Positions 39,001 to 42,000 of a stretch of DNA of 64,000 bases are shown here, one piece after another. The stretch is from assembly GCF_030013205.1 (NCBI RefSeq), contig NZ_CP122648.1; one strand, given 5' to 3'. Origin of the DNA: Escherichia coli. GTDB taxonomy: Bacteria > Pseudomonadota > Gammaproteobacteria > Enterobacterales > Enterobacteriaceae. The position numbers were made by a program. Each line of letters opens with the position of its first letter. Within the stretch, counting starts at the first letter, position 1.

Positions 39001-42000
39001 GATTCGCCAGCAAGGCACTCAGCCAGTCGTCCACTTTCTGCAATTCAGCCACGTTTCACCGTCCATATTTCTTCAGGTTCATCGGGTTCCGCTACAGCTT
39101 CAACACTAGACACACTGCCGTCAGTGCTGACCAGCACACGCTCCGTCAGTTGCAGGTTAAGGCTGATATCACAGACATCGTTGCGCAAAATATCCACCTC
39201 AAAGGTGAATAACTTTTCCCGTAACAGAGTTAATGCTGCTGATAGCATCACGACGGCCTGCACTGGTTTTTACATCTCCAGAAACCGCACCTGCCGCGAC
39301 ACGACCTATCTCTGCAGTTGCACTCATGACGTAATGCGGTAGTTTCTCTTTTGCCACCTCATTAATCGGAACACATGGCAGACAATGAATCTGTGCCAGA
39401 AAACCATCTACCAGCGTTGAATCTTCAGTCAGATCGGTAAGCAACCAAATTTCTGGTGCGGTTAATAAATGAGGTTGAGCTGGGTTCAGTTTGTTCCGCA
39501 GAATCTGCACATTCATGCCTGCACGTTCTGCCAGTTGCACCAGATTGTGGCGCAGTGCGAATGCACGACAGGCTTCATCAAAATGTGGATGTTTGGAAAC
39601 TTGGTAATCAAACATGGTCAATGCCTCTGATGTATTTCAGAATCGAACTAATTAAGGTTTAGATTGCATTCTGAAAGCGCATCAACGGTCATGGCGGCTA
39701 TGTTGATCATCACTTTTTCGCGTTTTTTATCTTTGCGCAAACGGTGACGGATAAGGCGTCCATCAGCCAACATGTCATTGATGGTATCGATGGACAGCCC
39801 TGTCAGCTCGCTATAGCGTTCAATAGTCACATGAGGCGTGGTAAGAGTGATTGAAATGTTAGGTCTCATGATGCAACATTCCTCGTTTAATGATGATTAA
39901 TCAGGACGAATACGGATCGTTTGTATTTTGTGAACACCATAAACATACGATCGCACAGTGAAATCGTCAAGGCAAAAGTTCACTTGGAGTGACCATGAAT
40001 TTGGAGAAAGGCGGACGAGGCGCTATAGAGCGCATGGTAGAAGCTTATGGATTCAAGACTCGACAGGCGTTGTGCGATCATTTAGGAATCTCTAAAAGTA
40101 CACTCGCCACACGTTACATGCGTGACTCATTCCCCGCAGAATGGGTAATCCAGTGCGCCCTTGAAACGGGCACCTCGCTTAATTGGCTCACAACCGGGCA
40201 TGGTTCAAAGCAAACTTCAGGTAATACAAATACTATGGAAGTTGCTAAATATGTATTATCTGATGGGGCCTTGTGTGAAGACGGTTTTTATATTTTCGAT
40301 AGGGAATTTCTACCGTCGGCATTCAAGAATCTTTTTGTAATCACAGATAATAATTCTGAATTTATTTGTGATAAGGAATTTGATGATATACGTGATGGTA
40401 AATGGGTAATAAGTATTGATGGCGAAATAACGATCCGTGACATTACTCGTTTACCCGGTGGAAGAATCTTCGTCGAGGGTGGAAACAGAGCCTTCGAATG
40501 CAAGATAGAAGACATTGAAATAATTGGTAAAATTATAAGTTTAACAGTCAAGTATGTTAAATAGTACCGGGAGGAAACTATGCTTGGTAAGGTATTTTTT
40601 GTGGTTTTGTCATGTTCTTTGTTATTAAACCCACTAACTACCTATGCTAGAAATTATCCCTGTTCAGGGAAAAAGGGAGGTGTTTCTCACTGTACCTCAG
40701 ATGGCAAATTCGTTTGCAATGATGGAACTATTAGTAAATCCAAAAAAATCTGTACTAAAAACTCACGATAACTTTTGCTTTTATATCTGCGCCTAAAATA
40801 AAAATGAGCCGCAGGTTAACCGCAAAAGTTACATGCTCACATAGCAAAAAGAATAGCCAACTTAATTATGGCTTCAGTGAGATGTATGGTCGTAGGATTT
40901 CATACATTGACACTGGTTATACATACAGTGAAAATGCTCTCTACTGGAGGGCATTTTTTATGGCAGTACGAAAACTCACCACAGGGAAATGGCTTTGCGA
41001 ATGTTACCCCGCCGGACGTAATGGGCGTCGTGTGCGTAAACAATTCGCCACCAAAGGCGAAGCACTGGCCTTCGAGCGATACACCATGGGGGAAATAGAA
41101 GCAAAGCCCTGGCTGGGCGAATCAGTGGATCGTCGGACACTGAAAGATATGGTTGAGCTATGGTTCAAATTACATGGCAAATCTCTTACTGCCGGACAGA
41201 ATGTCTACAACAAGCTGCTGTTGATGGTTGACGCCTTGGGAAATCCCCTTGCAACTGATCTCACCTCAAAAATGTTTGCTCACTATCGCGATAAACGCCT
41301 TACTGGTGAAATCTACTTCAGTGAAAAATGGAAGAAAGGAGCAAGCCCAGTTACTGTTAACCTGGAGCAAAGCCATCTAAGCAGCGTTTTCAGAGAACTT
41401 TCCCGCCTGGGTGAATGGACACTTCCAAACCCATTAGAGAAGATGCGCAAATTCACTATCGCAGAAAAGGAAATGGCATGGCTTACACATGAGCAGATTA
41501 TCGAATTACTGTCTGACTGCAAACGTCAGAACCCAATTCTGGCACTGGTAGTCAAGATATGCCTAAGCACAGGCGCACGCTGGCGAGAAGCAATAAATCT
41601 TACCCGCTCACAGGTGACCAAATACCGAATTACCTTTGTAAGAACGAAGGGGAAGAAAAACAGGAGCATCCCTATCAGTAAAGAGCTTTACGAAGAGATC
41701 ATGGCGCTTGATGGGTTCAATTTCTTTACAGACTGCTATTTTCAATTTTTATCCGTGATGGAAAAAACGTCTATCGTGCTCCCTCGCGGTCAACTGACAC
41801 ACGTTCTGCGCCATACGTTTGCGGCGCATTTCATGATGTCGGGTGGAAATATCCTTGCTTTGCAAAAAATCCTCGGACATCACGATATAAAAATGACTAT
41901 GCGTTACGCACATCTGGCACCGGATCATCTGGAAACGGCGCTCCGTTTCAATCCTCTGGCAACGCTGCCAAGTGGCGACAAAGTGGCGGCAGCGGTTGGC

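Follow-up and report, generated by a model that had tools for sequence, protein, structure and literature searches.

A YdcA-family gene between cI and int of a defective P2/186-like prophage in Escherichia coli encodes a predicted periplasmic mini-protein, possibly an envelope-level exclusion factor

In the window, a 64,000-nucleotide stretch of an Escherichia coli genome (contig NZ_CP122648.1), an ORF between cI and int of a prophage remnant was assigned by profile matches to the YdcA family (PF27300, NF007463, and phrog_6000). The ORF product looks like a Sec-exported, cysteine-rich mini-protein. Judged from its composition and neighborhood, the gene is AT-rich accessory cargo (a "moron") in a variable slot between cI and int. 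We tentatively propose, at less than an even chance, that the protein is made by the lysogen as a periplasmic cargo protein and hinders the entry of foreign DNA, which would make it an exclusion factor at the envelope level, of benefit to the lysogen. The recurrence of the cI–YdcA gene–int order, the cargo found in the slot of sibling prophages, the likeness to Dis2 and the fusions to nucleases are new in this study. The features of the region are listed in Table 1.

Table 1. Features of the prophage remnant and of the YdcA-family gene, with window coordinates
Feature	Position	Strand	Basis and remarks
Defective P2/186-like prophage remnant, ~15 kb, ogr to int	26755..42012	.	RefSeq annotation, identical region NZ_CP080233.1
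Truncated cII (CP76) pseudogene fused to tail-gene fragment	39220..39615	-	Pfam Phage_CP76, RefSeq pseudogene notes
Apl/Cox-position gene	39648..39869	-	Position, RefSeq CDS; first of divergent lytic operon
186-type CI repressor gene	39995..40564	+	Pfam Phage_CI_repr, Phage_CI_C; RefSeq; directly upstream of YdcA-family gene
Shine-Dalgarno GGAGG	40570..40574	+	Sequence reading; 5 nt spacer to ATG
YdcA-family gene	40580..40771	+	ORF list, NF007463, phrog_6000, PF27300, RefSeq, pN/pS
Predicted Sec signal peptide, residues 1-23, cleavage after T-Y-A	40580..40648	+	Hydrophobicity, AxA-type site, family-wide pattern
Mature YdcA domain, 40 residues	40649..40768	+	Alignment A1, AF2 model, Dis2-lobe similarity
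Spacer before int	40772..40959	+	Promoter/terminator scan
P2/186-type tyrosine integrase gene	40960..42012	+	Pfam Int_N, Phage_integrase; RefSeq; host rcdA next

The ORF opened with ATG and contained 63 codons followed by TAA, at the position and of the length that a preliminary description of this DNA had given. The cI stop codon TAG was at 40562-40564, with 15 intervening nucleotides, and subtraction placed the ATG 16 nt past that stop, also as described. The strong Shine-Dalgarno sequence claimed for the ORF was confirmed, and both it and its spacer were identical in four other E. coli alleles (L006-L009). An overlapping frame at 40644-40796 was rejected, as it was not conserved and occurred solely at the end of frameshifted alleles. 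Overall, all testable parts of the preliminary description were supported.

The same description had not recognized the sequence and had left it to a homology search. The sequence is recognizable as a YdcA-family member, with matches in NCBIfam, phrog_6000 and PF27300. The NCBIfam profile NF007463 matched with an E-value of 5e-34 and a score of 115.8 bits against a cutoff of 93, over residues 5-63 and the whole 58-position model, while phrog_6000 matched with an E-value of 2e-34. PF27300 "YdcA" was precomputed for the cluster identical to the query, and the identical RefSeq protein WP_000900883.1 was already labeled "YdcA family protein." Three other labels were set aside: a sub-threshold match to GULLO2-like_3rd (E = 0.075) was a chance match, obtained with a Pfam copy that did not include PF27300; the Neisseria gonococcal genetic island has a "ydcA" that coincides in name only; and the UniRef label "Conjugal transfer protein" on an identical protein, whose basis was untraceable, was treated as a lead and not as evidence.

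The ORF is short, AT-rich (35% GC) and enclosed by two regulatory genes, and in some alleles an A7 run carries a frameshift, all of which would suit a chance ORF in an AT-rich spacer or a leader that merely tunes int expression. A chance ORF was dismissed, however, because of the NCBIfam and phrog_6000 E-values of about 1e-34. Moreover, the family comprised 312 clusters (50% identity) across Proteobacteria, its cysteines and motifs were invariant, and synonymous changes exceeded non-synonymous ones about tenfold. The pN/pS values were 0.03-0.17 across ten E. coli allele pairs, equal to those of cI, and the window differed from BL21 by 10 synonymous changes and 1 non-synonymous change. By these sequence comparisons, the ORF is a real gene that is selectively maintained under purifying selection, and a non-functional ORF is hardly credible, being effectively refuted already. 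An identical or near-identical intact protein was found on >1000 contigs, and the gene was present in 591 of 5426 complete E. coli genomes (~1 in 9), BL21(DE3) and ATCC 8739 among them, each time in this prophage slot. In IMG/VR, 508 viral contigs carried it, and the 80 listed loci were all of the same E. coli prophage.

The preliminary description had also claimed that a hydrophobic signal peptide precedes a mature part of 40 residues containing four cysteines. A signal peptide of 23 residues was predicted, and the mature part that would follow it agrees in length and cysteine number. The N-terminus contains K4 and a hydrophobic core whose best 10-residue Kyte-Doolittle mean was 2.73, and T21-Y22-A23 precede R24. 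The call is based on heuristics and family evidence. A hydrophobic 10-mer was found upstream of the domain in 121 of 136 YdcA-family representatives, and Ala was dominant at -7 and -5 from the first cysteine across the family, which corresponds to an AxA site. In addition, the allele P0012 had a wholly different signal peptide and an almost unchanged mature part. The mature 40 residues contained C28, C38, C46, and C58, with a pI of 9.7 and a net charge of +7, in the motif PCSGKKGG...HC...FVCNDG.IS.SKK.C. In alignment A1 of 145 domains, P4, C5, C15, C23, S29, S31, and C35 were invariant, and the query possessed every one of them. The AF2 model of the mature domain had a pLDDT of 80.8, and many family members possessed poly-basic tails.

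A fifth cysteine, C12, falls within the signal peptide. If V9-L10-S11-C12 were a lipobox, the product would be an outer-membrane lipoprotein, lipidated at C12 and tethered to its domain by 15 residues, instead of a soluble periplasmic protein. V-L-S-C matches the loose PROSITE lipobox pattern, one source names the homolog P0047 "Lipoprotein," signal peptides of the enterobacterial prophage clade, though otherwise different, repeatedly contain a cysteine near position 12, and Dis2 adjoins the outer membrane. The pattern tested was [LVI][ASTVI][GAS]C at the end of an adequately long signal peptide. C12, however, is just 12 residues from the N-terminus, too near for this fit, and the hydrophobic core runs on past it. 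In sister alleles that cysteine is preceded by V or I, which is not lipobox-compatible, and most family members, YdcA included, have no signal cysteine and carry an AxA four residues before the first domain cysteine. The AxA ending at A23 fits the family better, and lipidation is considered very improbable.

Dis2 of Legionella was the only solved structure with detectable similarity to the YdcA domain. The two were matched by phmmer (E = 3e-5), by profile (E = 1.6e-3) and by hhalign (94.9%, with 46% identity across 26 columns), and Dis2 provided the top two Foldseek matches of the modeled domain. All four cysteines of the YdcA domain aligned with cysteines in lobe 1 of Dis2. Other PDB profile matches with E-values of 0.008-5, which were LDL-receptor class A repeats, c-type lysozymes and Pin-II proteinase inhibitors, were rejected as cysteine-spacing noise. 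A word-index search with a Dis2 fragment for PF27300 membership gave no candidate. Dis2, which binds DotK, DotC, and DotD, is positioned at a distance from the secretion channel, and deleting it is of only minor consequence (PMC12716638). In the papers on Dis2, the protein is presented as Legionella-specific and without structural relatives, and YdcA is not mentioned.

The remnant is inserted between ybjL and rcdA. Its replication, head and lysis genes are absent, tail gene I has a frameshift and the gene for the tape measure is truncated; the fusion of cII with a tail-gene fragment marks the internal deletion. For the flanking att sites, no exact repeat of at least 12 nt was found in the ranges tried. 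The Apl/Cox-position gene had no Pfam match, and its role is suggested by the gene order of 186. The YdcA-family gene had a GC content of 35% vs. 47% for the prophage. No terminator-like site was detected in the + strand of the spacer between the gene and int by the promoter/terminator scan, which placed a promoter-like site at 40907-40935. The last 60-90 nt of this spacer were common to prophages with other cargo, with matches beginning at query positions 307-337, corresponding to window positions 40872-40902. These results agree with the location on the cI-int strand given previously. The gene is probably transcribed together with cI, starting at the lysogenic promoter, and its product would therefore be made in lysogens.

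The order cI–YdcA gene–int recurred in P2/186-like prophages of Escherichia, Yersinia, Hafnia, and Haemophilus. Absence from related prophages had been named as a finding that would speak against the gene; it was present in at least four genera. In Haemophilus HP2/S2 the YdcA copy is unannotated, and in phage HP2 the ATG of the homolog overlaps the cI stop codon. In Hafnia, cI, an ORF of 143 amino acids, the YdcA gene and int are spaced ~3 nt apart. Both arrangements couple the gene to cI and would fit expression from a lysogenic transcript. In Hafnia as well as HP2, further small cargo genes lie on either side of the YdcA gene.

In sibling prophages that share the integrase and the att site, the cI-int slot contained other cargo, including SNIPE/PD-Lambda-1, a KAP NTPase (PDC-S20) and a further protein of 314 amino acids. 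YdcA was the only cargo in ~592 of 1150 genomes with this integrase, and the remainder carried different cargo. In several E. coli prophages, the KAP NTPase gene, matched by PADLOC as PDC-S20 and with PifA-like similarity, begins 11-13 nt after the YdcA gene. This cargo strengthens the earlier suggestion that conversion or exclusion genes are typically found in this position. No model of PADLOC-DB 2.0.0 matched the ORF itself (E ≤ 1e-3), and the same scan matched PD-Lambda-1 and PDC-S20 in the sibling prophages. SNIPE has been validated as a nuclease that cleaves phage DNA while it is being injected (bioRxiv 10.1101/2025.11.03.685801). Among 147 family representatives, the only recurring fused Pfam domains were secreted nucleases of two unrelated folds, Endonuclease_NS (4) and SNase (1), and the fusions were located on a MOB/T4CP element and in a P2-like phage. 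Moreover, one homolog was encoded on a 3.9-kb mobilizable plasmid after a TraD-like gene. Standalone chromosomal copies neighbored housekeeping genes, and the chromosomal ydcA of E. coli is a core gene.

Transcription of the window gene from pL, cleavage of the signal peptide and formation of the disulfides are all predictions. In the proposed mechanism, the precursor would be cut by signal peptidase I after A23, and the mature protein would be oxidized in the periplasm to form two disulfides. The basic, disulfide-stapled fold might then dock either on an outer-membrane-proximal structure of the envelope or on DNA that is passing through, where it could hinder foreign DNA, either that of a superinfecting phage or possibly that of a conjugating plasmid. 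An exclusion role deduced from the hotspot location would be guilt by association, and in the literature no experiment shows phage exclusion, DNA binding or biochemical activity for any YdcA-family member. The window prophage is a defective remnant, and therefore any benefit here may be historical.

Two other functions were weighed against exclusion. The protein might be an envelope fitness or stress factor of the classic lysogenic-conversion type, conferring tolerance of acid, organic acid or envelope stress, as chromosomal YdcA would, and not acting against phages or plasmids. E. coli W without chromosomal ydcA was sensitive to 300 mM 3-hydroxypropionate, the sole phenotype reported for that gene, and ydcA is reportedly induced at pH 5 under YdcI (PMC7642389). 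The standalone chromosomal copies among housekeeping genes also favor such a function, and anionic envelope polymers could be bound by a basic, disulfide-rich domain. The phenotype, however, is a single report under one condition, the slot neighbors are defense genes, and a stress function leaves unexplained both the nuclease fusions and why phages, plasmids and a type IV secretion system have repeatedly acquired such genes. A stress factor is accordingly regarded as doubtful. Alternatively, the protein might be an accessory subunit that works only with a neighboring cargo protein, such as the KAP/PifA-like membrane NTPase, or with a host envelope machine, in the manner of Dis2 within Dot/Icm, and would be a leftover where it is alone, as here. 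The adjacent KAP NTPase genes, the small cargo genes in Hafnia and HP2, and the position of Dis2 as a peripheral structural subunit are consistent with this. However, the YdcA-only slot is the commoner one, this arrangement is under strong purifying selection, and PDC-S20 is catalogued as a single-gene candidate, so that an accessory subunit is distinctly unlikely.

The slot shared with proven anti-phage genes, the Dis2-like fold and the nuclease fusions together provide a concrete hypothesis for an entire orphan family, and one that is cheap to test. Should the protein block DNA entry, it would rank among the smallest known exclusion factors and would offer a way into the function of Dis2 and YdcA; otherwise the ORF is an ordinary annotated hypothetical gene. 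A broader reading is that mobile elements widely carry the YdcA/Dis2 fold as a periplasmic module that recognizes DNA or the outer-membrane-proximal parts of machines moving DNA across the envelope. The cI-int copy would then represent a new class of very small exclusion factors that act at the envelope against incoming phage or plasmid DNA. This reading is speculative and clearly less probable than not, but if true, Dis2, published as Legionella-specific, would join a large family.

Periplasmic or envelope superinfection-exclusion proteins of phages include T4 Spackle, P1 Sim, and the lipoproteins Cor and Llp. They are small, phage-encoded, possess signal peptides and protect their carrier before or during DNA entry. 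However, they showed no sequence or fold likeness to the ORF product in PADLOC and BFVD, and a Foldseek search of the BFVD viral structures gave nothing significant. Similar to the window gene, SNIPE/PD-Lambda-1 (DUF4041 plus a GIY-YIG membrane nuclease) occupies the identical cI-int slot and att site, and it targets DNA at the envelope while injection is under way. Different from the ORF product, to which it is unrelated, SNIPE is an inner-membrane nuclease of 558 residues with cytoplasmic domains, whereas the ORF product has a predicted periplasmic domain of 40 residues and no catalytic motif. Dis2, which belongs to the Dot/Icm secretion machine and is located close to the outer membrane, has a signal peptide and a disulfide-stapled periplasmic module, as is predicted for the window protein. 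In sequence and fold, the window protein resembles the lobes of this T4BSS outer-membrane-cap subunit, but it lacks the two-lobe architecture and the dot/icm association: Dis2 has two lobes and five disulfides and the window protein a single lobe, and the window gene has no adjoining type IV secretion genes, its neighbors being cI and int of a P2/186-like prophage. The closest likeness is to the YdcA family itself (E. coli YdcA b1419; PRK10040 models NF007462-NF007464), in which the window protein scored above the curated HMM cutoff. Both have one four-cysteine domain of ~35 residues with the motifs PCSGxKGG and FxCxDGxxSxSKKxC, and the signal peptide predicted for the window protein would complete the common layout. 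The window copy belongs to a prophage-borne subfamily, with NF007463 as its best model and the chromosomal ydcA model NF007462 scoring below its own cutoff, and it lies in a putative cI-int operon, whereas chromosomal ydcA lies next to rydC/cybB.

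The ORF between cI and int encodes [63 protein letters not shown]. Its start codon is separated by 15 nt from the TAG stop of cI (40562–40564) and by 5 nt from an upstream GGAGG sequence, in agreement with the preliminary description of a 63-aa ORF with a strong Shine-Dalgarno sequence just past cI. Four further E. coli alleles, which differ at the 3' end of cI, had the same GGAGG site. The amino acid sequence had not been recognized then, but homology searches assigned it to the YdcA family. The product matched NCBIfam NF007463 (PRK10040.1-2) with 115.8 bits (curated cutoff, 93) and phrog_6000 (E = 2e-34), its precomputed Pfam family was PF27300 "YdcA" and the identical protein WP_000900883.1 is named "YdcA family protein" in RefSeq. 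Judged from these matches, it belongs to the YdcA family. As the ORF and the family were already catalogued, the sequence itself is not new. An exhaustive HMMER scan showed that the family comprised 312 clusters at 50% identity, and E. coli K-12 possesses a paralogue, YdcA, of 57 aa that is predicted to be periplasmic. The consensus of 145 aligned domains was [34 protein letters not shown], of which P4, C5, C15, C23, S29, S31, and C35 were invariant.

The ORF product begins with a charged N-terminus (K4), and its hydrophobic core leads to a T-Y-A site. The 40 residues of the mature part (4.3 kDa) include four cysteines and have a pI of 9.7 and a net charge of +7; the earlier account of a signal peptide, which is predicted, and a four-cysteine mature part of this length was accurate. 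A hydrophobic 10-mer was found upstream of the YdcA domain in 121 of 136 representatives, and Ala predominated at -7 and -5 relative to the first cysteine; this pattern corresponds to an AxA signal-peptidase-I site. Thus, the product is predicted to be cleaved after A23. Moreover, the signal peptide of allele P0012 was wholly different while its mature domain was nearly the same, which fits a cleaved signal. A cysteine near position 12 recurred in the otherwise unrelated signal peptides of five proteins of the enterobacterial prophage clade (P0001, P0012, P0022, P0027, and P0028); in the window allele only, this residue (C12, 40613–40615) lies in a loosely lipobox-like V-L-S-C.

The pN/pS values between the window allele and four E. 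coli alleles, one from BL21(DE3), two from intact 186-like prophages and one from a prophage that has a KAP NTPase as well, ranged from 0.03 to 0.17, which was the same range as that of cI on the same genomes (0.07–0.18). For instance, the window and BL21 ORFs differed by 10 synonymous changes and one non-synonymous change. These substitution patterns indicate that the ORF is a real gene under selection. The identical protein was found on >1000 contigs, and 647 of the 5426 complete E. coli genomes contained the corresponding 238-nt region, which was full-length in 591. A minority of alleles were frameshifted, mostly at an A7 run (40742–40748), for which sequencing error, decay and slippage are all possible causes. 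The alleles frameshifted at A7, such as P0068 on 14 contigs, do not have the fourth cysteine.

Features of the window and of compared loci (L-numbers, other loci compared)
Feature	Position	Strand	Remarks
ORF, YdcA family	40580-40771	+	63 codons; ATG start, TAA end
Ribosome-binding site GGAGG	40570-40574	+
cI, 186-type CI repressor	39995-40564		upstream of ORF; Pfam Phage_CI_repr E=3e-33, Phage_CI_C E=3e-27
Truncated cII joined to tail-gene fragment	39199-39263		prophage remnant; junction near 39220-39224
Promoter-like TTGACA-17-GAAAAT	40907-40935		just upstream of int
FRG-domain protein, 311 aa	37653-38588	+	opposite strand, between tail genes S and V; GC 37%
Acyltransferase-family gene	31946-33001	+	opposite strand, between tail-fibre assembly and tail sheath genes
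HP2 YdcA-family ORF	L002 2920-3102 = NC_003315.1 2486-2668	minus
SNIPE/DUF4041 protein, 558 aa	L102 804-2480; L103 822-2498		PADLOC PD-Lambda-1 E=2e-119
Unknown protein in slot, 314 aa	L101 1527-2471
YdcA gene, then KAP NTPase	L009 2711-4042		PADLOC PDC-S20 E=2e-171; PifA-like similarity
YdcA-Endonuclease_NS protein, full-length	L018 5001-5921
YdcA gene of pApiMCR53a	L104 728-904

The order cI, YdcA gene and int was found in intact 186-like E. coli prophages and in Yersinia enterocolitica. In Hafnia alvei, a 143-aa ORF lies between cI and the YdcA gene, and about 3 nt separate the genes. Haemophilus phages HP2 and S2 encode an unannotated 60-aa homologue whose ATG overlaps the cI stop (TAATG). 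Between this ORF and int, HP2 has orf1(S), whose product carries a signal peptide and an OB-fold domain of the tRNA_anti-like type (Pfam E = 3e-13). Absence from related prophages had been named as grounds for rejecting the ORF; given its recurrence in Escherichia, Yersinia, Hafnia, and Haemophilus, it is conserved among them. In Moraxella phage Mcat15, a homologue was found with the tail chaperone genes on one side and the tape measure gene on the other. The homologue of Acinetobacter phage Ab11510-phi lies in a stretch of unannotated genes that precedes a very large ORF, and that of Xenorhabdus is adjacent to ogr. In IMG/VR, 508 viral contigs carried a relative.

Matches of 100% identity to the window were found in many ETEC genomes of porcine origin and in E. 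coli O139:H1 P15-25. Its P2/186-like prophage, between ybjL and rcdA, is a remnant of ~15 kb (about 26755–42012) without replication, head and lysis genes, in which a frameshift affects tail gene I and the tape measure gene is truncated. Its lysogeny module has remained intact and consists of a gene in the apl position, cI, the ORF and int. A scan of the + strand between cI and int revealed no terminator-like site. On the minus strand, a near-consensus sigma-70 site (40560–40532; TTAACA-17-TATAAT, 11/12) points into the 3' end of cI and may be a chance occurrence in AT-rich DNA. The ORF had a GC content of 35%, lower than the 47% of the prophage and the ~51% of the host genes on either side, which fits acquired cargo. 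Elsewhere in the remnant, the FRG-domain protein matched PDC-S15 (E = 8.5e-32), a family listed by PADLOC as a defence candidate, and its gene is likely a second defence moron. The acyltransferase-family gene occupies the position at which P2 classically carries its Z/fun cargo and is a candidate gene for conversion by O-antigen modification.

The integrase of this prophage was found in about 1150 complete E. coli genomes, about 592 of which had the arrangement of the window. In the remaining carriers, similarity began only 60–90 nt upstream of int and the content of the cI-int slot differed. The slot had been suggested to be a place for conversion or exclusion genes, and the slots of sibling prophages, which share the integrase and the att site, indeed held SNIPE/PD-Lambda-1 and KAP NTPase (PDC-S20) genes. 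SNIPE, a membrane nuclease validated by experiment, cuts phage DNA during injection (bioRxiv 10.1101/2025.11.03.685801). From its gene content, the slot of sibling E. coli prophages behaves as a defence-cargo hotspot, for which we found no published account in 186-like prophages, and the YdcA-family gene is its commonest occupant. The ORF product itself matched no PADLOC model.

Among 147 YdcA representatives, the only recurrent kind of fused Pfam domain was the secreted nuclease, Endonuclease_NS (4) and SNase (1), whose folds are unrelated; one fusion each involved VasL, DUF4124, TerY_C, and a PBCV-type basic domain. The full-length YdcA-Endonuclease_NS protein is encoded next to genes for a MobA/MobL relaxase and a type IV coupling protein on the same element, and the YdcA-SNase protein is encoded by a P2-like phage. 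Homologues were also found on 58 plasmids, mostly of Acinetobacter and Rhizobium. In the Acinetobacter pittii plasmid pApiMCR53a (3916 bp, MOBQ, five genes), the YdcA gene directly follows a TraD-like gene. Poly-basic tails end many family members.

The ORF is predicted to be co-transcribed with cI and hence to be expressed in lysogens. Its product is predicted to be cut at A23, to form two disulfides and to reside in the periplasm. We tentatively suggest that this mini-protein might bind DNA in transit or a structure of the envelope close to the outer membrane and hinder the entry of foreign DNA, in which case it would be an envelope-acting exclusion factor. This suggestion is based on the hotspot neighbours, the strongly cationic surface and the ties of the family to extracytoplasmic DNA handling, namely type IV secretion, mobilisable plasmids, secreted nucleases and phages.

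The main alternative is a role in envelope stress or fitness, like that suggested for chromosomal ydcA, the deletion of which made E. coli W sensitive to 3-hydroxypropionate (PMC7642389); we consider it possible but doubtful. It is unlikely that the product is an accessory subunit, and processing as a lipoprotein at C12 is less probable still. That the ORF, with its low pN/pS, is not a gene at all is hardly conceivable. The ORF product is a prophage-borne cargo of the YdcA family with a predicted periplasmic location, and its function is directly testable in common laboratory strains.

AlphaFold2 with the 145-sequence alignment modelled the mature domain as compact, with two short strands (mean pLDDT, 80.8). 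One relative was found in the PDB, Dis2 (Lpg0823; 7MUC/7MUD chain AN; compared region of the window, 40649–40768). Dis2 was matched by phmmer (E = 3e-5; next matches, E ≥ 0.24), by profile (E = 1.6e-3, with both lobes aligned) and by hhalign (probability 94.9%, 46% identity over 26 columns). It also accounted for the top two matches of Foldseek (probability 0.82–0.84, query-normalised TM 0.58–0.64, 38% identity). We found no published account of this homology or of the HP2/S2 gene, and the Dis2 papers describe Dis2 as Legionella-specific and without structural relatives. By sequence and model, each lobe of Dis2, which is an outer-membrane-cap subunit of the type IVB (Dot/Icm) secretion system of Legionella, resembles a YdcA-family domain.
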